In this document: positions 37,839-64,000 of the stretch, one piece after another | Numbering within the stretch: the stretch's first letter is position 1 | Layout of the letters: every line of letters starts with the position of its first letter | Origin: an uncultured Gammaproteobacteria bacterium | GTDB lineage: Bacteria; Patescibacteriota; Microgenomatia; Daviesbacterales; UBA10151 | NCBI GenBank assembly: GCA_964500725.1 | Contig: CAZCNP010000001.1 | Span: forward strand, 766 to 64,765 | Direction of reading: 5' to 3' | Length of the DNA stretch: 64,000 bases | Program-made: the position numbers and the translations under genes | The notes under the pieces: model-generated | Told to the model about the DNA's origin: nothing | The model's database searches: none | What the model saw: only the letters and a program-made list of their open reading frames with translations

Positions 37839-39536
37839 ATGAAAGTTTCTATAAACTGGTTAAAAGAATTAGTAGATTTAAAAGCTTCTGTTGAGGAGCT
37901 AGTGAAGCTTTTAGCTCTTAGGACTATTGGAACCAAAGAAGTAACAGGCCAATATATTGAGCTGGATATGAAAGGCTACAATAGGGCAGACCTGTTATCT
38001 TTAAGAGGGGTAGCCAGAGAAATAGCTGCTATTACTGATTCTCAAATTACTTTTGAAAATGAGAACCCTAATAAATTCCCTTGGGTTACCCAAAAACTAC
38101 CTGAAACACCAGTTAAAGTAGAAAATCCAGAGCTGGCTCCAGTTTATTGTATTGTCAAAATTGAGGGACTAAAAATTGGTCCTTCTTCTAAAGAGTGGGT
38201 AAATAAACTTGAAAGCAGTGGTATAAGATCAGTGAATAATCTGGTAGATATAACCAACCTCCTGATGGTTGAATATGGTCAAGACATGCATGCATTTGAT
38301 GCTGACTGTATTGCTGAACAAAAACTAATAGTTAGACTTGCAAAAAAAGGAGAACAGTTAACAACCCTTGATGGAAAAAGGCTTCAGCTATCAGAAGAGG
38401 ATTTGATAATTGCTGACCCTCAAAAACCAGTTGGCTTGGCAGGTATCATGGGAGGTAAGGATTCAGAAGTTTCTCAAAATACCCAGACTATTTTTTTGGA
38501 GATCACTATTTTTGATCCCATTGCTATTCGTAAAAGCAGCCACAGGCATAGACTTCATTCAGAAGCTGCAAAAAGAGTCCAACATGGGCTTACCAGAACT
38601 AATCTTCTACAATCAATGTCTGCTGCTATAAAAATGTATGAGAGCTTAGGAGGCAAAGTCACAGCAATTACATTAATAGGAGACCTAAAAGATGAAACTA
38701 AAACTGTTACTTTATCTCAAGAAAAAATTAACTCTTTAGTTGGAGTAGATATTTCTCCTGAACAAGTAGAAGATTCTTTAACTAAGCTAGGTTTTACTTT
38801 AGCTTCCCACATCGGAAGTGGGAATGTAATTTGGGAAGTTACAGTTCCATACTGGAGACTGGATATAAATATTGAGGAGGATATAGTAGAGGAAGTAGCC
38901 AGGATGTATGGTTATGAAAAGATTCCTGCCAAGCCTTTGACTGACAATATACCAAATATAGAGGAAAATCCCCTTTTTGAGGCTTTAGAGAGGCTTAAGC
39001 AGGCACTTTCAAAGACAGGTCTAACTGAAGTCCAAACCTATTCCTATTACTCCAGCAAGGTAATTCTCAATTCTCAATTCTCAATTGTCAATTTGATCAA
39101 AGTTGCCAATCCTATCTCATCTGAAACAGAATACTTAAGAGATAATCTTTGGCCAAATTTACTGGAAGCAGTTGCTAAAAATATTAGAAATGGAGTTAAA
39201 GATGTTGCTATTTTTGAGGTAGGAAAAGCCTACCTTATAAAGAATGGCTTACCAGAAGAACCTCACAGGTTAGCTATAGCTTTATCAAATAGTACTGATA
39301 ATCCTATTGCTGAGCTTTACCAGATTTTCCAACGTTTAGGATCACACCTGGAAGGTATCAAGCTAAATGCTGATAAGAAACCAGGACGAGAAACTTTTCA
39401 TCCCACCAGATCATCTGTTTTAGAAGAAGATGGAAAACAAGTTGGCTTTATAGCTGAAATCCACCCCAGGATTGTTAATAAATTTGGAATAGACCAAAGA
39501 GTAGCTGTGTTGGAAATAGAAATAAATAATTACTAA
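37839..39536 (+). CDS. pheT: Phenylalanyl-tRNA synthetase beta subunit (short form)
   Basis: B3/4 and B5 regions (VTVPYWRLDINIEEDIVEEVARMYGYEKI). Contains an in-frame REP-like insert at 38801-38827 and a 7-mer tandem repeat at about 39056-39084. Confidence 0.9.
   Translation: MKVSINWLKELVDLKASVEELVKLLALRTIGTKEVTGQYIELDMKGYNRADLLSLRGVAREIAAITDSQITFENENPNKFPWVTQKLPETPVKVENPELAPVYCIVKIEGLKIGPSSKEWVNKLESSGIRSVNNLVDITNLLMVEYGQDMHAFDADCIAEQKLIVRLAKKGEQLTTLDGKRLQLSEEDLIIADPQKPVGLAGIMGGKDSEVSQNTQTIFLEITIFDPIAIRKSSHRHRLHSEAAKRVQHGLTRTNLLQSMSAAIKMYESLGGKVTAITLIGDLKDETKTVTLSQEKINSLVGVDISPEQVEDSLTKLGFTLASHIGSGNVIWEVTVPYWRLDINIEEDIVEEVARMYGYEKIPAKPLTDNIPNIEENPLFEALERLKQALSKTGLTEVQTYSYYSSKVILNSQFSIVNLIKVANPISSETEYLRDNLWPNLLEAVAKNIRNGVKDVAIFEVGKAYLIKNGLPEEPHRLAIALSNSTDNPIAELYQIFQRLGSHLEGIKLNADKKPGRETFHPTRSSVLEEDGKQVGFIAEIHPRIVNKFGIDQRVAVLEIEINNY
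38801..38827. repeat. REP-like 27-nt palindrome (AGCTTCCCAC ATCGGAA GTGGGAATGT) in frame inside pheT (encodes SHIGSGN)
   Basis: 7-bp inverted repeat TTCCCAC/GTGGGAA around a 7-nt spacer. It is near-identical to the copies at 47437-47463 and 58018-58044. Confidence 0.8.
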
Positions 39537-46602: not shown

Positions 46603-48365
46603 TTATCAGTCCATTTAGTTTCTGGAGTCTCCACCCTTCCTAATTTTTGACCTAATAACAAAACGAAAGATAGCAGATAACTATAAAACTTACCATGATA
46701 ATGTACCGAAGCTTTTTTTAGTAACTCATAAGCTTTTTCGCGGCCAATTCTTTTAGTAGAACCTCCATGATGGTGAATAAACTTTGCCTCTGGCACAAAG
46801 AATAAAGGCACCCCGAACTGTTTTAATCTTCTGGCATATTCAATATCCTCAAAGAAAATGAATGATCCTTCATCTAATAACCCAACTTTATTAAGTATCT
46901 TCTTGGGAATGAACAAACAAGCCATTACCATCCCTTCTACCAGAGAGTGCTTATCGCCTGTAGGTAAATACATAAAATAAGACCCTTTCTGAGCCAGAAA
47001 ATACTCCTTAAATGCTCCAGTTAGGGTAGGCAAATGAAAAGCAGAATCTTGGGAAGAATAATCTGGAAAAACTAATTTTCCTCCTAAAACAGCCTTTCCT
47101 TTGAATTGCTCCTCAGCTTCTATTAATTTAGAAATGCCACCCTCTAAAACTTCTATATCAGAATTTAACATTAAATAATACTCACCTAGAGAGTACTTTA
47201 TTGTTTTGTTATAGCCTTTGGAGAAACCTTCATTTTCTTTATTTTGTAAATATTTAACATTAAACTGATTGATCCAACTTGAGCAAGGATCCAAAAGCCC
47301 ATTATCTAAAACTATTACCTCCATATTTTTTTCATCAAAACCAGATTTTTTATCAAAAATGCTTTGCAGGAGTTTTTTGGTTAAATCTGCAGTGTTGTAA
47401 TTTACTATTCCTATTGATAATTTCAAAGGATATTCTACGTTCCCACTTCCGATGTGGGAAGCTAAATTCCCATTTCCTGTTATGCCTAAATAAAAATCCA
47501 ATATTCCTTTTCTTTGAGCTGGCCTGCCAAAAATAAACAGCCATAAAGCCTCTCTAAGTAAAGCAAACCTAGTCCTTAATTTTCCATACTGCATCCCAAA
47601 AATTAATCTGTTTCTGGTGTGGTAATAATCTGTAAGTTCTGATCCTATTCCTGTAGACTGGGAAACTTTATGATAAATGCTTGTCTTGCCATTATAGTAA
47701 ATCTTAAATCCTGCATCTTTAACTCTTTTTGCAAAATCACTATCTTCAAAGTACAAGAAATATTTTTCATCTAAACTCACTTGTTCAAAAACTTCTTTTT
47801 TTACTAGCACACAAGCCCCAGAAAAAATCTCAGCTTCTTCAACTTGATCATATTGTCTCTTATCTACTTCATCTATTCCTCTGTGAATCGAGCCAATATT
47901 ATCCCAGTCAAATTTTCCCCCAGCAAACCAAATTACTCTTCCTAAATCCTGCCTTTCATACCTGTCTTTGTGAAATTCAAATCCAGGAGCAAAATAAATT
48001 TTAGGAGAAACCAAACCAATTTTTGAATCAGATTCTAATGTTTTTATAAGTTGAGAAATCAAATCAGCATCACTTACTTCACAATCATTATTTATCAGTA
48101 AAAAATAATCAGACCCACAAATTTGGGCATACTCTATACCTTTGTTAAACCCTCCAGAAAACCCCAAATTTTCTCCAGTTTGCACTATATCAACTTCAGG
48201 AAACTGTTTATGGAAAGCTTGTATTCTTCCATCTATAGATCCGTTATCCACAACAACAATTTTCAATTCTCCATTGTCAATTTTCAATTTCTCTAGCGAT
48301 TCTAAAAACTCTAGCGTGTCTTTTTTTCCGTTGTAATTTAGCGTAATTATTGCGGCTTTTTTCAT
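46599..48365 (-). CDS. Tandem two-domain family-2 glycosyltransferase (GT-A x2)
   Basis: Two ITLNYNG...VVDNGS and IVNYNT...VLDNG GT2 modules. The linker carries an in-frame REP-like insert at 47437-47463. Confidence 0.75.
   Translation of the reverse strand: MKKAAIITLNYNGKKDTLEFLESLEKLKIDNGELKIVVVDNGSIDGRIQAFHKQFPEVDIVQTGENLGFSGGFNKGIEYAQICGSDYFLLINNDCEVSDADLISQLIKTLESDSKIGLVSPKIYFAPGFEFHKDRYERQDLGRVIWFAGGKFDWDNIGSIHRGIDEVDKRQYDQVEEAEIFSGACVLVKKEVFEQVSLDEKYFLYFEDSDFAKRVKDAGFKIYYNGKTSIYHKVSQSTGIGSELTDYYHTRNRLIFGMQYGKLRTRFALLREALWLFIFGRPAQRKGILDFYLGITGNGNLASHIGSGNVEYPLKLSIGIVNYNTADLTKKLLQSIFDKKSGFDEKNMEVIVLDNGLLDPCSSWINQFNVKYLQNKENEGFSKGYNKTIKYSLGEYYLMLNSDIEVLEGGISKLIEAEEQFKGKAVLGGKLVFPDYSSQDSAFHLPTLTGAFKEYFLAQKGSYFMYLPTGDKHSLVEGMVMACLFIPKKILNKVGLLDEGSFIFFEDIEYARRLKQFGVPLFFVPEAKFIHHHGGSTKRIGREKAYELLKKASVHYHGKFYSYLLSFVLLLGQKLGRVETPETKWTDN
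47437..47463. repeat. REP-like 27-nt palindrome (ACGTTCCCAC TTCCGAT GTGGGAAGCT) in frame in the GT2 inter-domain linker (encodes ASHIGSGNV)
   Basis: Reverse complement of the pheT copy with one mismatch. Confidence 0.8.
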
Positions 48366-56812: not shown

Positions 56813-57030
<218 letters not shown>

Positions 57031-57753
57031 TTAATGTTGCTCGCCATGCTTTTCTGATAATAACACCATAAAAGCTAGTGTTAACATCATAAAAACAGCA
57101 GCCTGTACAAATCCTACAATAATTTCCAAAAAATAAAAAGGGAGGGGTACTATAAAGGCAACAAGCGAAGACACTGTTGATAGTACTACCTCACCTGCAA
57201 ATATATTACCAAAAAGCCTGAAAGAAAGCGAGACTATTTTTGTTACCTCTCCAACAAGCTCCAAGATTCCCACAAATAAAAATATTGGATTTAGGGTAAA
57301 CCATTTTTTTAAATAATCAACAATCCCTAAATAGTAAATAGCAAAGGCATGTGTTAAAAATGCAGAGGTTAAAGCCAGTGCCAAAGTCATGTTTAAATCA
57401 GAGTTCATAGAGCGGAGTAGTGGTTCTTTATGGTAAGTAATGGTGGCAAACCCTGGTAAAAGTCCTATCCAGTTAGAAAAAAGAATAAAGAAAAAAAAGG
57501 TCATCACAATTGGAAAAAAGACTTTAGCTTTTTTGTCTCCAGCTAACCCCTCAACTGTGGTGTATCCAAAATCAATTATCATTTCAAATAAATTTTGCAG
57601 TCCTTGTGGAACTAAAGTTACTTTTTTAGTTGCAAGAAAAGTAATAAATATAATCACAGCCATAGTAATCCAACTAACCAAAAGAGTGTTGGTAATAGGG
57701 AAGCTATTAAAAAAACCCAGTACCTCGGGTTTCAAAACTATAGTATTTTCCAT
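57031..57753 (-). CDS. atpB: F0F1 ATP synthase subunit a
   Basis: Multi-TM protein with a conserved Arg region (LSFRLFGNIFAGE). Confidence 0.85.
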   Translation of the reverse strand: MENTIVLKPEVLGFFNSFPITNTLLVSWITMAVIIFITFLATKKVTLVPQGLQNLFEMIIDFGYTTVEGLAGDKKAKVFFPIVMTFFFFILFSNWIGLLPGFATITYHKEPLLRSMNSDLNMTLALALTSAFLTHAFAIYYLGIVDYLKKWFTLNPIFLFVGILELVGEVTKIVSLSFRLFGNIFAGEVVLSTVSSLVAFIVPLPFYFLEIIVGFVQAAVFMMLTLAFMVLLSEKHGEQH

Positions 57754-57797
57754 GTTATATATTGTGCCTGAATTCCAATTATTTTACAAGAAGCTTT

Positions 57798-57826
57798 TTC
57801 CTACATTCCCACATCGGATGTAGGAA
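57798..57826. repeat. REP-like variant hairpin (TTCCTACAT tcccacatcgg ATGTAGGAA), 3' of the transposase
   Basis: 9-bp inverted repeat that contains the family core TTCCCACATCGGA. Confidence 0.7.
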
Positions 57827-57832
57827 TACGAA

Positions 57833-58555
57833 TTAATCTTCACCATCAATTAGTAATCCAAACAGTGCAGGATCATAAACTTCAGTTTCCTCAACAAAAG
57901 ACTGATAATCTAAATTGGGATTAGTTTTGGAAAAAAATGAATTAATAAAACCAGTATCACAAAAAGGATGCTGTTTTCCAGATAAATAATATGAATAAGA
58001 GGAATAGGGGTAATGTCTACGTTCCCACATCGGAAGTGGGAAGCTGTTTCTATGTATATATTTTGATAGGTGAAGAAGGTATTCTTCTGTCTCAACTAAC
58101 TTGGCTTTAAAACTGCCTTGAAATAAAGAACCAACTCTATCATGTTTAGTATTAAAGTATCTTGTGTAACTATCTGCTAATCTCCTTAAGAATTCTGATA
58201 TACCACCATCAGATATTTGCTGGACTAACAGGTGAAAATGGTTTGGCATCAAACAATAACAATATATTCTAACCAATTCTGTTTGATTCTCTATTTTTTT
58301 GAGTTTTATTACACCTCTTCTAAAATCTGAAAGTTTCATAGGTACAGGATATTTGCGGTAAAAATCCAAAGTTTCTAAAAACCTCAAATGATCTCTTCTA
58401 TCCATAAAGGTTTTTCTTTTTTCAACACCGCGGTTATAAATATGATAAAAACTGCCACTTACAAATGGGGGATTAACCACAAACTTATTCTCTACATTCG
58501 TGTTCCCACATGTCAAGTGGGAATTCAACTGGAAGAAACTAGTGCTTTTTCCCAT
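57833..58555 (-). CDS. tnpA: Y1 HuH transposase (IS200/IS605 TnpA-like / REP-associated tyrosine transposase)
   Basis: FYHIYNRGVEKRKTF, HuH motif CLMPNHFHLLV and a C-terminal catalytic YIHRN. Both ORF ends read through REP-like palindromes, so the true N- and C-termini are probably shorter. Confidence 0.75.
   Translation of the reverse strand: MGKSTSFFQLNSHLTCGNTNVENKFVVNPPFVSGSFYHIYNRGVEKRKTFMDRRDHLRFLETLDFYRKYPVPMKLSDFRRGVIKLKKIENQTELVRIYCYCLMPNHFHLLVQQISDGGISEFLRRLADSYTRYFNTKHDRVGSLFQGSFKAKLVETEEYLLHLSKYIHRNSFPLPMWERRHYPYSSYSYYLSGKQHPFCDTGFINSFFSKTNPNLDYQSFVEETEVYDPALFGLLIDGED
58018..58044. repeat. REP-like 27-nt palindrome (ACGTTCCCAC ATCGGAA GTGGGAAGCT) overlapping the transposase 3' end
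   Basis: Canonical family member. It shares both arms with the GT2 copy and differs only in spacer orientation. Confidence 0.8.
58501..58529. repeat. REP-like variant (GTTCCCAC ATGTCAA GTGGGAATTC), 27 nt inside the transposase 5' end
   Basis: Same 7-bp arms with a different spacer. It shares the GTGGGAATTCA flank with the recG copy. Confidence 0.7.
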
Positions 58556-59010
58556 ATCTCTTGGTTACGAGATAAGAAAAACTTATGATCAGAATAACCA
58601 TCCCTCCTTAATTGTTCTCTGGTATAAGGCTGGTGACCTGATCTTTGCATCTCTTGTAAAATAGCTCCTCTCTGATCTGGGGTAGCTCCATCAAATCTAA
58701 TCTTTCTCCAAAATCTAACACTCCAATGCATAGCATCTACTGGAGTAACTAAACCTCTGGAGCGTGGAATGTTGACCATTGCATGGTTTATCAACAATTT
58801 GGCATCTACTTCGCTTCTTGCCAACGGATCAATTCCACCAATACGCACCCCCCAATCGCGACCCAAATACCTTTCAATATTTTCAATAGCACCAAAATAT
58901 CTCCGTCTCTCCCATACAGATTCTGCGTTAGGATCAAATCTACCTTCGCCCCTTCCGTCTTGAGGACATAAACCAAAATATAAATATAACTCAGCGTAAG
59001 CTTCTGGCAT
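58525..59010 (-). CDS. Hypothetical protein (161 aa), GC-richer
   Basis: ORF. I recognise no motif. Confidence 0.45.
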   Translation of the reverse strand: MPEAYAELYLYFGLCPQDGRGEGRFDPNAESVWERRRYFGAIENIERYLGRDWGVRIGGIDPLARSEVDAKLLINHAMVNIPRSRGLVTPVDAMHWSVRFWRKIRFDGATPDQRGAILQEMQRSGHQPYTREQLRRDGYSDHKFFLSRNQEIWEKALVSSS

Positions 59011-59045
59011 ATACTATAGGGAAGTATATCACAGTGGAACAATAG

Positions 59046-59120
59046 CTTACTTAGTCTAATTTTTCCCTTTGATTCCTTAGGAAAAGAAACCACTGTTCAA
59101 AGAAGGCAAATATGCCTTTT
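59046..59120. repeat. Direct repeat copy A (about 72 nt), a duplicate of the 3' end of gene 59745-61316
   Basis: 62 nt (59049-59110) are identical to 59744-59805, then one mismatch, then ATGCCTTT. Confidence 0.8.
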
Positions 59121-59131
59121 ATCTTGCTATA

Positions 59132-59476
59132 ATGAATCTTACTATGAAACTTCCCAATGGCAATAATGCTTTAGTTTCCAAAGAGAAGTTGACTGGTTAT
59201 CTTCTTTCAGAAACCCATGCAGTAGGTAAGGCGAAGGCTAAGTTCTTTCGTAAATTAGGGTTTAATGAATCCAATGTCAATAAGTTTGAGAAATCATTGC
59301 TAAATATTGCAAAGAGAAACGAAATAAAAAATGTTAAGGAATTCACATATGGTATTAATTATGTCTTAGAAGGGAAAATTAAAACTCCAAGTAGAAAAAT
59401 AATAACTCTAGTGACAGTCTGGTTTACTAAAACAAAAGGAGGAAGACCTAGTTTTGTAACAGCATATCCTGTATAA
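59132..59476 (+). CDS. DUF6883-like protein (predicted toxin-like partner of DUF4926)
   Basis: KLTGYLLSETHAVGKAKAKFFRKLGF resembles the DUF6883 signature. Family recalled from memory. Confidence 0.45.
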   Translation: MNLTMKLPNGNNALVSKEKLTGYLLSETHAVGKAKAKFFRKLGFNESNVNKFEKSLLNIAKRNEIKNVKEFTYGINYVLEGKIKTPSRKIITLVTVWFTKTKGGRPSFVTAYPV

Positions 59477-59494
59477 TACATAAGGGATAAATTT

Positions 59495-59731
59495 ATGCAC
59501 AAATTTAAGAATTTAGAAACAGTTATATTAACTCATGATATTAAAAAATACGGTCTCTGCAAAGGAGACATGGGAGCTGTTGTAAATGTGTACGAAGATG
59601 GCAAAGCAGCAGAAGTAGAATTTGTGACTGCTGCCGGTAAAACCGCAGCGCTAGTTACTCTAACTTCTGATGATGTTCGCGACATCAAACAAAACGATAT
59701 ACTTCATGTCAGAGGCTTTGCTGCAGTATAA
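59495..59731 (+). CDS. DUF4926 domain protein
   Basis: VILTHDIKKYGLCKGDMGAVVNVYEDGKAAEVEFVTAAGKTAALVTL matches the DUF4926 pattern. Confidence 0.55.
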   Translation: MHKFKNLETVILTHDIKKYGLCKGDMGAVVNVYEDGKAAEVEFVTAAGKTAALVTLTSDDVRDIKQNDILHVRGFAAV

Positions 59732-59740
59732 TTCTTATAT

Positions 59741-59817
59741 CTACTTAGTCTAATTTTTCCCTTTGATTCCTTAGGAAAAGAAACCACTGTTCAAAGAAGG
59801 CAAAGATGCCTTTAAAT
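59741..59817. repeat. Direct repeat copy B (native 3' end of gene 59745-61316)
   Basis: See copy A. It encodes ...FFEQWFLFLRNQREKLD and the stop. Confidence 0.8.
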
Positions 59818-61316
59818 GGAGTCTCAATAATAAAATCAAAGATAAATAGAAGAATATTTATCTGGGAAATTGCTAAGGTTAACCTGCTTCCTATTTGAAT
59901 AAAAGGCATAAAGAAAAAGTCCATTACTACTGAGCTTATTCTTTCCCTTTTTTCTTTCATCACATACATATTGGCTGTTCTATTAATCCTAAAACTGACA
60001 AAAGAAACTATTGCCAGGAAGAACAAAAATATCCCCTGGGATAGAGGATTAATCCCTACTTTAGTTAAAACAAAAACAATTGACCCAAGACTAATACCAA
60101 AAGCAGTTAGCCACATCAGTATAAACAAACTCCACATCAAGGGATCAGTTTTGCTTGGTTTTTTCTTTACTGTCAAAGGCTGGTCCAAAGCTGGAGGATC
60201 ATCATACAAAATAGTATTTATTTTCTTTAAAATCTTAAATGAATTTTCCCTTGTTGGAGTTTTAATTAAAAACCCTACTAAAATCATCAAGGCTGGAGGA
60301 GTTAAGGTATTTAAAACTATAGAAGGCCAAAGTATCCTGCCATACAAAATCCTTTCAAATGTTCCTTCCACAAAAAGGGCAAACACAGCCTTTGTACAAA
60401 ATATAAAAATAACACTTCTAACAATTGCTCTGTTAACTTTGCTTCTGATAGCTTTATAGCGCGCATTACAAGCTGCTAAAATTTCTGAATTTAGACGATC
60501 TTCGTCTAAAACTAAAGCTGCAGTTTTACCCCGATACTTTCTGAAAACATCATCCAAAATTAAAAAGGGGACTGACTGATTCTTAATATAAGTATATATT
60601 TTGTCTTTAGCTGGATATTTAAAATGATCCTCAAATTGCTTATAAGCATCCGCAAAACCTTCTGCCACTTTTTCTAAATTCTCACTATTTAAATGCCCAA
60701 AGTATTGTTTAAAAAGGTGATAGCGTAAAAATGCCAAATCATCGTTGGCATATGCCCGCCTCACAGCAATAAAAGTCTGGATATTCTTTACCTCATCAGT
60801 ATCATCAGCAATTGTTATTCTATCTTTGAAGATATTAAAGATAAAATTACTCATAACATCTTTGGGATCATTGGGTTTTAAAATATGCTCAATCTCAGAA
60901 GATACAAGGTGCATAATCCATTCATTTACTGCTCCTTTACCAATGCGGTGCTTCTGGTTAACTTTTCGTTCTAACTCCAAGTATAAATCTAGGGCATGTG
61001 AAACTTGAGCTACCTGAGATTCAGCTATAGTAAAATCAGGAAAATATCTTGCCCAAACAAGTTCGCGAATTAAAGGGGTAGCAACAGTTTTACCTTCTCC
61101 TCCTAGTATTAATCTTCTTTTTAATATTCGCTCAATGGCAGCCCGGAGAATTACCTCTTCAGCTCTATAATCCATTGCAGTTCTAAATTTTTCATACCAG
61201 GTAGCAAGCTCAGCCACCACAGGGTTAACAGAAATAGTCCTATCATGGTTTTGGGCAGAATTTTTATCATATGCTGCAGTTAATGCCTGAGAAAGCCTGT
61301 TTAAGTTTTTAGACAT
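59745..61316 (-). CDS. Hypothetical protein (523 aa) with a large cytoplasmic N-domain and a C-terminal multi-TM region
   Basis: ORF with C-terminal hydrophobic helices. Confidence 0.5.
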   Translation of the reverse strand: MSKNLNRLSQALTAAYDKNSAQNHDRTISVNPVVAELATWYEKFRTAMDYRAEEVILRAAIERILKRRLILGGEGKTVATPLIRELVWARYFPDFTIAESQVAQVSHALDLYLELERKVNQKHRIGKGAVNEWIMHLVSSEIEHILKPNDPKDVMSNFIFNIFKDRITIADDTDEVKNIQTFIAVRRAYANDDLAFLRYHLFKQYFGHLNSENLEKVAEGFADAYKQFEDHFKYPAKDKIYTYIKNQSVPFLILDDVFRKYRGKTAALVLDEDRLNSEILAACNARYKAIRSKVNRAIVRSVIFIFCTKAVFALFVEGTFERILYGRILWPSIVLNTLTPPALMILVGFLIKTPTRENSFKILKKINTILYDDPPALDQPLTVKKKPSKTDPLMWSLFILMWLTAFGISLGSIVFVLTKVGINPLSQGIFLFFLAIVSFVSFRINRTANMYVMKEKRERISSVVMDFFFMPFIQIGSRLTLAISQINILLFIFDFIIETPFKGIFAFFEQWFLFLRNQREKLD

Positions 61317-63024: not shown

Positions 63025-64000
63025 ATGAAGCTTGGAACTCCACTTGACCAGCTAATAGGAATTGGGCCAGGATTATCTTATAAGCTTAAAAAGTTAAACC
63101 TAAATACCGTAGAAGATCTAATTTATCATTTTCCTTTCAGGTATGATGATTTTTCTGCTATCAAATCTAGTACTGAGGCTCAAATAGGGGAGATTGTAAC
63201 TTTACAAGGGGAAATCTGGTCTATTAAAAATATTTTTACAAGATATGGAAAAGTATTAACCCAGGCAATTTTTAATGATGGACAGTCTCCTGTAGCTTTA
63301 ACATGGTTTAACCAGTCTTGGCTGACAAAACAAATTAAAACAGGGGACAGGCTGCAAATTTCAGGCAAACTCAGTAAGTATAAAGGCAAACTTTCTATCA
63401 TGGCCCCCAAATGGGAAAAACAGCTTCCCACATCGAATGTGGGAATTCATACAGGCAGACTTGTCCCTATCTACCCTGAAACAGAAGGGTTAACTTCTAA
63501 ATGGGTTAGAACAAAAATTGATCAGCTCTTACCTCAAATTGAAAACCAAATCCAAGACCCTTTGCCAAATTTTATTCAAGATAAAATGCTGGATTTACCA
63601 GAAGCAGTTAAAAAGATCCACTTTCCTCAAAATTATGAAGATGTTCAAAAAGCCCAAGAAAGATTAGGTTTTGATGAGCTTTTCTATATTTCTTTAGCTA
63701 CTCAAAAAACCAGACTTGCTTGGAGAGAAAAACCTACTGTTCCTCCTTTGCAAATGTACCCTAATGCCTTAGAGGAATTTATCAAAAAACTGCCTTTTGA
63801 TTTAACTAATGCTCAAAAGAAAGTAATAGATGAAGTTTTGGAGGATTTAAAAAAAGACCAGCCTATGAATAGGATGATCCAAGGTGAAGTAGGCTCAGGA
63901 AAAACAGTAGTTGCTGCTGTAATTATTTACCTGCTACATCTTAATAATTTAAAAACTCTTTTTATGGCCCCCACAGAAATTTTAGCCTTTCAGCACTTTT
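63025..64000 (+). CDS. recG: ATP-dependent DNA helicase RecG (5' partial; runs off the window end)
   Basis: Wedge-domain YHFPFRYDD, LTNAQKKVIDEV and GEVGSGKT. Absent from the ORF track because no stop falls inside the window. Contains an in-frame REP-like insert. Confidence 0.85.
   Translation, partial: MKLGTPLDQLIGIGPGLSYKLKKLNLNTVEDLIYHFPFRYDDFSAIKSSTEAQIGEIVTLQGEIWSIKNIFTRYGKVLTQAIFNDGQSPVALTWFNQSWLTKQIKTGDRLQISGKLSKYKGKLSIMAPKWEKQLPTSNVGIHTGRLVPIYPETEGLTSKWVRTKIDQLLPQIENQIQDPLPNFIQDKMLDLPEAVKKIHFPQNYEDVQKAQERLGFDELFYISLATQKTRLAWREKPTVPPLQMYPNALEEFIKKLPFDLTNAQKKVIDEVLEDLKKDQPMNRMIQGEVGSGKTVVAAVIIYLLHLNNLKTLFMAPTEILAFQHF
63422..63448. repeat. REP-like variant (AGCTTCCCACAT cga ATGTGGGAATTC) in frame inside recG (encodes LPTSNVGIH)
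   Basis: 9-bp inverted repeat with a 3-nt loop and the same family arms. Confidence 0.75.

Follow-up and report, generated by a model that had tools for sequence, protein, structure and literature searches.

A Y1 HUH transposase gene and its probable cognate hairpins in a Candidatus Daviesbacteria genome

The tnpA gene and its hairpins

We analyzed a 64-kb stretch of DNA (the window) from a genome of Candidatus Daviesbacteria (Patescibacteria/Candidate Phyla Radiation), focusing on tnpA, a gene for a Y1 HUH transposase, and on the short hairpins of one sequence family that accompany it. The gene is present once in the window, directly upstream of atpB and with no annotated partner gene beside it, just as an earlier reading of the same DNA (the original prediction) had described. 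The features are collected in Table 1; labels of the type L001 or L002 denote related loci or genomes used for comparison.

The 240-amino-acid (aa) open reading frame (ORF) described previously (57833..58555, minus strand) was found together with its three motifs, YHIYNRG, LMPNHFHLLV and YIHRN, and its proposed membership of the Y1_Tnp family was borne out by a profile search (PF01797; 39.2 bits vs. a cutoff of 23, E = 9e-10). The residues H106, H108 and Y166 (240-aa numbering) were invariant in 18 homologues, as were the HUH histidines and the catalytic tyrosine in a set of 49. The product was also modelled with AlphaFold2 (predicted local distance difference test score 81, predicted template-modelling (TM) score 0.80) and compared with the PDB by Foldseek. 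In this model, the catalytic tyrosine sits on helix 132–144, and the peptide encoded by the internal hairpin described below falls in the least confident stretch of the core. The top match was 4er8_A, the Escherichia coli tyrosine transposase associated with repetitive extragenic palindromes (REPs), or RAYT, bound to a REP hairpin (E = 7e-5, target TM score 0.66), followed by the transposases of IS608, ISDra2 and IS200, with a Foldseek probability of 1.00 for each of 4er8, 2a6o, 2vjv, 2xo6 and 2f4f. At the sequence level, a PDB search with the single protein returned nothing relevant and a PDB profile search only a weak HUH-motif match to ISDra2 (E = 0.15); PADLOC and PHROGs gave no match for tnpA and three neighbouring ORFs. 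The ORF encodes a transposase of the Y1 HUH type.

More than 7,800 homologues of tnpA were found, chiefly in Candidatus Daviesbacteria, Levybacteria and other Microgenomates, and nearly all of them are about 215 aa long with the N-terminus 'M.NPPF'. The NCBI record for the exact 215-aa protein (MBI4036066.1) is named 'transposase'; the 240-aa and 215-aa versions are both on record, each on one contig per assembly. Since the homologues and the NCBI call begin there, we take the GTG at 58480 as the true start, which places the 5′ hairpin 23 nucleotides (nt) upstream of the gene and not within it, and the segment 58481..58555 is probably untranslated. The earlier placement of this hairpin 27 nt inside the 5′ end holds for the over-extended ORF only, so that the supposed read-through at this end was an artefact of ORF calling. 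In some database homologues, the called start lies inside the 5′ hairpin (MTSGN.., MWER..) or the called end reads through the 3′ hairpin (..VPTFHVGS), which is the same annotation artefact.

Hairpins were counted as TTCCCAC-N7-GTGGGAA with at most two mismatches, and 100 dinucleotide shuffles of the window served as background. Six copies were detected, compared to a mean of 0.20 in the shuffles, none of which reached six (0/100). Three copies lie at tnpA and three in other ORFs of the window, in agreement with the claim that the gene is bracketed by palindromes of a dispersed family. This is the sole repeated hairpin family in the window; the remaining 21 perfect hairpins are singletons, at approximately chance level. 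The three palindromes at tnpA were recovered at the places given by the original prediction, whereas two of its placements relative to the gene ends, the 5′ one discussed above and the internal one discussed below, were wrong.

Table 1. Features of the tnpA locus and of the dispersed hairpin copies in the window
Feature	Position	Strand	Basis
tnpA (Y1) coding sequence, 215 aa, GTG start	57833..58480	-	PF01797; homologue starts; MBI4036066.1
ORF over-extension 5′ of the true start, reads the 5′ hairpin as NSHLTCGNT (probably untranslated)	58481..58555	-	missing from most homologues
HUH motif H-F-H	58232-58240	-	alignment
Catalytic Tyr codon	58058-58060	-	alignment
5′ hairpin, TTCCCAC-TTGACAT-GTGGGAA (gene strand)	58503..58523	-	hairpin scan
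Promoter-like site: TTGACA (hairpin loop), 18-nt spacer, GAGAAT	58487..58516	-	consensus match at 10/12 positions
Internal hairpin, TTCCCAC-TTCCGAT-GTGGGAA, encodes FPLPMWE	58022..58042	-	hairpin scan, alignment
3′ hairpin, degenerate TTCCCAC copy at 57806-57826 nested in a 9-bp palindrome	57798..57826	-	hairpin scan, DNA fold
Shadow ORF, 61 aa, reads ASHFRCGNV, overlaps tnpA out of frame, not a gene	57910..58095	-	wholly within the conserved tnpA frame
atpB	57031..57753	-	
Hairpin copy in pheT, in-frame reading ASHIGSGNV	38804..38824	+	hairpin scan
Hairpin copy in glycosyltransferase ORF, in-frame reading ASHIGSGNV	47440..47460	-	hairpin scan
Hairpin copy in recG-like ORF, in-frame reading LPTSNVGI	63425..63445	+	hairpin scan

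The loop of the 5′ hairpin carries the first half of the best sigma-70-like consensus match of the region, TTGACA-18 nt-GAGAAT. Because the GTG start follows just 6 nt beyond GAGAAT, a leaderless tnpA mRNA, transcribed from a promoter embedded in the loop, is predicted. A hairpin 41–52 nt before the start with the loop TTGAC[AG]N was present in 10/10 examined loci (9 distinct) with TTCCCAC-type hairpins, hairpin copies elsewhere than at the 5′ position carry other loops, and the promoter geometry of the window recurs in L001, L002 and L095. A promoter-type loop, TTGACGA, was also observed in an intergenic copy 53 nt upstream of a 321-aa gene (L002:18966-18984, the same as L097:18930), at the spacing seen at tnpA. 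Dispersed hairpins may, judging from such sequences, sometimes act as portable -35 boxes.

The internal hairpin had been described as overlapping the 3′ end of the gene; it lies approximately 185 nt upstream of the stop codon and occupies codons 172–178 of the 240-aa ORF, so that it is not an end of the unit. The peptide it encodes, FPLPMWE, directly follows the catalytic YIHRN, and family members hardly ever differ in its F, P, W and E (FPLxxWE). The stem codons TTC CCA CTT ... TGG GAA were identical in 7/8 genomes, the exception being L010, with TGT in place of TGG and hence one stem mismatch. Synonymous sites between the window and seven relatives are largely saturated (proportion of synonymous differences 0.38–0.78, and about 0.7 outside the stem codons across the eight genomes), and just 19% of the Phe codons in the genome are TTC and 35% of its Pro codons CCA. 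Because the stem codons are essentially fixed at synonymous sites, the stem appears to be constrained as DNA or RNA and not merely as protein. A recent insertion was ruled out as the origin of this hairpin, given that the peptide is conserved and that relatives lacking the hairpin have a segment of at least the same length. The internal hairpin is native, family-conserved coding sequence, neither an end nor an insert. The shadow ORF pointed out by the original prediction does exist, as an out-of-frame reading of this hairpin.

The longer variant that had been noticed beyond the stop codon was likewise found: the 3′ hairpin begins 7 nt past the tnpA stop, has one mismatch in its TTCCCAC-type stem and can form an alternative 9-bp stem, TTCCTACAT/ATGTAGGAA, over its whole span, with a DNA folding energy of -7.5 kcal/mol (z = -4.3). 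In homologous loci, a hairpin lies 7–27 nt past the stop, and at L015 the called ORF runs on through it. A role as intrinsic terminator was considered and rejected, since the gene strand has no T tail and the sole terminator-like call, on the antisense strand, is no better than expected by chance; an Rfam search over 57000-60000 at E <= 1 gave no match.

Further observations concern the element itself. Partial duplications of a hairpin arm adjoin the full hairpin at 57798-57826 of the window, at L002:9975-10013, at L008:10655-10691 and downstream of tnpA in L011 (for example, CATTCCCAC..CATTCCCAC and GCTTCCCCAC..GCTTCCCCAC), and may have been left behind by cleavage and rejoining, or by slippage at the hairpin. 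At 1–2 nt 3′ of the hairpin stem there is a partly conserved (N)GTAG(A). In the element consensus, AGCTTCCCAC-N7-GTGGGAACGTAGA, five of the six frames are free of stop codons and the sixth is closed solely by the TAG of this 3′ GTAG tag; the recG copy, the one that uses that frame, lacks it.

Co-variation, synteny and dispersed copies

To place the window among its relatives, 164 loci were grouped into 146 clusters at approximately 90% protein identity, 133 of which had complete flanks and were scanned for perfect stems of at least 7 bp. A hairpin was found upstream of tnpA in 71/133 clusters and just past the stop in 70/133; the same stem occurred on both sides in 39/133, and an extra matching copy lay in frame inside the ORF in 28/133. 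The stems vary by lineage (TTCCCAC, TGTACACC, ATCACAC, TGACAAGG, GTTCGAAG, CTAAGGG, ACAAAGG, TGCAAGG and others). Internal copies are concentrated at three spots, namely 3–11 residues after the Y motif, 25–37 residues before HuH and, in the most distant relatives, the interval between HuH and Y. The peptides they encode are wholly unlike across lineages (FPLPMWE, LTRAPLV, NKGPSFV, CKDGPCR), and their DNA tracks the flanking hairpin; hairpin-free relatives have the canonical NPxxAGLV..YPxSS at a similar length. Outside tnpA, hairpins of a genome's own type were found at 1.95 per 100 kb compared to 0.038 for foreign types, a 51-fold enrichment, and 11/22 of the own-type dispersed copies fall within long ORFs. 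In many related lineages, the hairpin sequence and the transposase change in concert. In view of this tracking and enrichment, TnpA is the plausible cognate enzyme of the in-frame hairpins, as the original prediction had proposed.

The gene is under strong purifying selection (ratio of nonsynonymous to synonymous substitution rates, dN/dS, of 0.04–0.10 vs. four relatives), with its HUH and Tyr motifs intact and its reading frame unbroken in all relatives examined. Its surroundings are also retained: L001 has the order 523-aa gene, tnpA, atpB (93% aa identity), L002–L007 have this order plus one extra gene (79%), and L008, on a 1.1-Mb contig, has tRNA-synt_1b, tnpA, ABC, atpB (69%). In Levybacteria and in a more distant Patescibacteria genome, tnpA is found in other contexts. 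Taken together, the evidence from gene order favours one fixed, vertically inherited tnpA locus by the atp operon across Daviesbacteria.

Three representative genomes carry two tnpA copies, which are diverged paralogues (L016/L025 on JBAZXP010000001.1, L020/L042 and L026/L080; 19 kb apart in one case). Where detected, their flanking hairpins are unlike each other: ACAAGG/TTCGACC at L020 vs. GCGACCT at L042, and GTACACC at L016 vs. a single hairpin of another type at L025, with none detected at L080.

Upstream of the gene, the window carries approximately 1.2 kb of extra sequence (58525-59744) compared to L001, where about 12 nt part the 523-aa gene from the 5′ hairpin. This extra segment holds a 161-aa ORF without a family match and a DUF6883/DUF4926 pair, and at 59051-59119 the 3′ end of the 523-aa gene recurs as a duplicate of 69 nt. 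The window and L001 become collinear again precisely at the 5′ hairpin, which suggests a hot spot for insertions at the hairpin border.

The recG and glycosyltransferase copies of the window are also found at the orthologous L001 sites, with identical stems in flanks that are just 72–73% identical. At both sites, the window (47440-47460 and 63425-63445) and L001 (L001:14533 and L001:1500) have the five bases at the centre of the loop in opposite orientations (TCCGA/TCGGA), which amounts to a flip-flop with unchanged flanks. A weak tblastn match at 63223-63561 was considered as the remnant of a second tnpA and rejected: it is the recG ORF, matched via its hairpin alone.

The copy in pheT lies in a loop of the protein that is hypervariable in Daviesbacteria, bounded by KLGFTLAS before and WEVTVPYW after; many genomes read ASH..SGNV there, some ASQGETL, and some lack the extra segment. 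At L173:10969-10985, the site holds AGCTTC-ACAAGGT-GAA-ACCTTGT, i.e., a hairpin of another type behind the same left flank, AGCTTC. One and the same PheT site holds different hairpin types in different lineages.

Interpretation and alternative explanations

We regard the locus as a REPtron-like unit, consisting of one RAYT-like class-2 Y1 HUH transposase, inherited vertically and maintained by selection, together with the 21-nt hairpins cognate to it, and give this explanation a probability of about three in four. The choice between IS200 and RAYT, which the original prediction had left open, falls on the RAYT-like side because of the fixed locus, the single contig per assembly, the divergence of the paralogues and the class-2 motifs.

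Several points weigh against this explanation. The tnpA product scored 39.4 bits for the NCBIfam REP_Tyr_transpos equivalog NF047646, below its cutoff of 80; the canonical 5′ GT[AG]G guide is not present at the hairpin foot, the tag described above standing 3′ of the stem instead; and the number of dispersed copies, 3 in 63 kb here and about 2 per 100 kb in the relatives, is small and falls well short of that in classical REP families. Further, no clean pair of filled and empty sites that would define the inserted unit was found among the recG, glycosyltransferase, recG-tyrS and PheT sites. The first two copies are common to the window and L001, the hairpin in the L001 recG-tyrS spacer sits in a 58-nt indel within diverged sequence, and the PheT loop varies too much to give clean boundaries. 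Finally, mobilisation of the hairpins by TnpA is what we infer from the co-variation and by analogy with related enzymes.

An autonomous, tnpA-only insertion sequence (IS) of the IS200 type would have the copies at 58503 and 57806 as its subterminal ends and the solo hairpins as its footprints or miniature derivatives. The Y1 fold matches the IS608, ISDra2 and IS200 transposases, hairpins lie near both gene ends of a unit of about 730 bp, and in many loci (e.g., L014, L016, L021 and L057) the two hairpins share one orientation, like IS200/IS605 ends. However, genomes whose proteins are 69–93% identical have the gene at the same chromosomal position, the window holds one copy and each assembly one contig with it, and paralogues within a genome have diverged. 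IS200 belongs to subclass 1.1, with DH[VI]H, W[TS], Y[IV]ENQ and a core-only protein of about 150 aa (PMC6006769), in contrast with the NHFH, FQ, YIHRN (YIHxN(P) in the family), 215 aa and 70-aa tail found here. We therefore consider an IS200-type element unlikely, and the IS200-size element of the original prediction is not a mobile unit here.

Comparably improbable, in our judgement, is that the hairpins are regulatory or structural elements of the host (promoter, mRNA or DNA structure) which TnpA does not move and whose association with the gene is one of regulation only. This could explain why the 5′ loop is a conserved -35 box, why dispersed copies are scarce and why stems are kept at orthologous intragenic sites over approximately 20–27% flank divergence, where they may function in place. 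It does not sit well with the co-variation of transposase and hairpin type in dozens of lineages, with the 51-fold enrichment of the cognate type in its own genome or with the PheT site, which bears TTCCCAC-type or ACAAGGT-type hairpins depending on the genome; nor was there an Rfam match or a terminator tail. The degenerate 3′ hairpin of the window, with its one stem mismatch, and the Ser that replaces the Pro of the class-2 Y---NP would suit a decaying relic with an inactive transposase gene and fossil hairpins, which the low dN/dS, the invariant catalytic residues and the intact frame in all relatives examined make very improbable.

Under the REPtron-like explanation, and by analogy with E. 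coli TnpA(REP) and IS608 TnpA, TnpA would bind the hairpin in single-stranded DNA, cut beside its foot via a 5′-phosphotyrosine link and then rejoin the ends. Such cutting and rejoining would seed, move or overwrite hairpin copies, the tnpA gene itself presumably no longer transposing. As the 5′ hairpin overlaps the predicted tnpA promoter, hairpin extrusion or TnpA binding could autoregulate expression, and the internal hairpin may be preserved as DNA, whether because it offers TnpA an additional binding site or because it is continually homogenised with the flanking copies.

A broader proposal is more speculative, and we hold it only tentatively. A large Patescibacteria Y1 branch might carry 'site-stable, sequence-replaced' hairpins at persistent sites, such as the tnpA hot spots and PheT-like loops, which are overwritten according to the specificity of the resident transposase, with the 5′ copy doubling as promoter and providing built-in autoregulation. 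If hairpins at stable sites are overwritten in concert with the transposase, the activity would be of a copy-and-replace (gene-conversion-like) kind and not simple insertion.

Among domesticated transposases that come with a population of DNA repeats inherited vertically, RAYT/REP systems are the best example, and their descriptions stem mainly from Proteobacteria, Cyanobacteria and Bacteroidetes. No paper linking RAYTs with Patescibacteria turned up in a text search of the literature. The arrangement is widespread among the reduced genomes of this group, in which genes are densely packed; at least 586 loci were found in species-representative genomes. It is because such genomes have almost no intergenic space that the hairpins live in frame within essential genes and within the transposase, and they offer a natural test of DNA-level vs. 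protein-level constraint. They also account for recurrent gene-calling artefacts (over-extended starts, read-through stops and shadow ORFs). With its small enzyme and short perfect hairpins, the system would be a compact one in which to study sequence-specific cutting and joining of single-stranded DNA.

Comparison with known systems

The closest likeness is to the E. coli TnpA(REP)/RAYT REPtron (4ER8; PMC3333891, PMC3479197), in which a Y1 HUH enzyme is flanked by hairpins that are dispersed in the genome. E. coli TnpA(REP) is single copy, as tnpA appears to be here, and enzyme and hairpin co-evolve as in the Daviesbacteria system. However, the two proteins share merely 13% sequence identity, and the Daviesbacteria protein has 215 aa and a different tail. 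In contrast with E. coli REPs, the Daviesbacteria hairpins have short, perfect stems of 7 bp, lack both bulges and the 5′ GTAG guide, number in the tens and not the hundreds, occur as singlets rather than as paired REPs (BIMEs, bacterial interspersed mosaic elements, or REPINs, REP doublets forming hairpins), and lie inside genes in about half of the cases.

For class assignment, motifs were read off alignments against Table 1 of PMC6006769 and not with the authors' hidden Markov models. On these motifs alone, NHFH, FQ, YIHxN(P), YPYSSY and the length agree with class 2, subclass 2.1. In the broader family, the Y motif is YIHLNP or YIHRNP, and the window has YIHRNS, with the internal hairpin starting there; within the TTCCCAC-hairpin clade of the window, the residue after the N of the Y motif is variable (S, T, A or P). 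TnpA(Y1) proteins of subclass 2.1 (terminal inverted repeat (TIR)-associated tyrosine transposases, TIRYT) have the same NH[YF]H, FQ, Y[IV]HLNP, 'SS' tail (YPYSSY) and length of approximately 215–240 aa (PMC6006769, PMC3733652). They have been reported to lack REP-like sequences and to have a C-terminal helix-turn-helix (HTH), long TIRs with GGGGWSAS and about 238 aa (PMC6006769; PMC3733652). In the Daviesbacteria system, by contrast, short hairpins of the REPtron type flank tnpA and a Pfam scan of its product found no HTH domain, so that the branch of the enzyme seen here bears hairpins, though elsewhere it has been reported as REP-free.

In subclass 2.4, REPs lie in frame inside tnpA(REP), between HuH and Y (PMC6006769), which resembles the present case in that a cognate hairpin is contained in the transposase gene with the frame kept. 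The positions of the internal hairpins differ from those described for that subclass: the hot spots here lie directly after the Y motif and 25–37 aa before HuH, and the segment is not lengthened. With the IS200/IS605 TnpA proteins (IS608, ISDra2, IS200), the Daviesbacteria TnpA shares the fold, the catalytic motifs and the subterminal hairpins, and their single-strand 'peel and paste' chemistry is the likely mechanism for it too. In contrast with these, the Daviesbacteria tnpA is not multi-copy in the DNA covered and not a mobile unit, has no tnpB, carries class-2 motifs and encodes an extra C-terminal tail of about 70 aa.

Palindromes that lie in frame are also a feature of Rickettsia palindromic elements (RPEs), which are 100–150 bp long and for which we know of no cognate transposase; they were reportedly described in frame within housekeeping genes by Ogata et al. 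in 2000. The unit here measures only approximately 21–30 nt, and a cognate Y1 gene is present. The different hairpin types at the PheT site recall recB of Xanthomonas, where different REPs lie at about the same site in orthologous genes (PMC3733652). Overall, the locus matches the known RAYT/REP arrangement, here in an ultra-small bacterium; what is unusual is that synonymous sites in the stem of the internal hairpin are essentially fixed, that the loop of the 5′ hairpin holds a conserved -35 box and that the hairpin type at the PheT site depends on the lineage.

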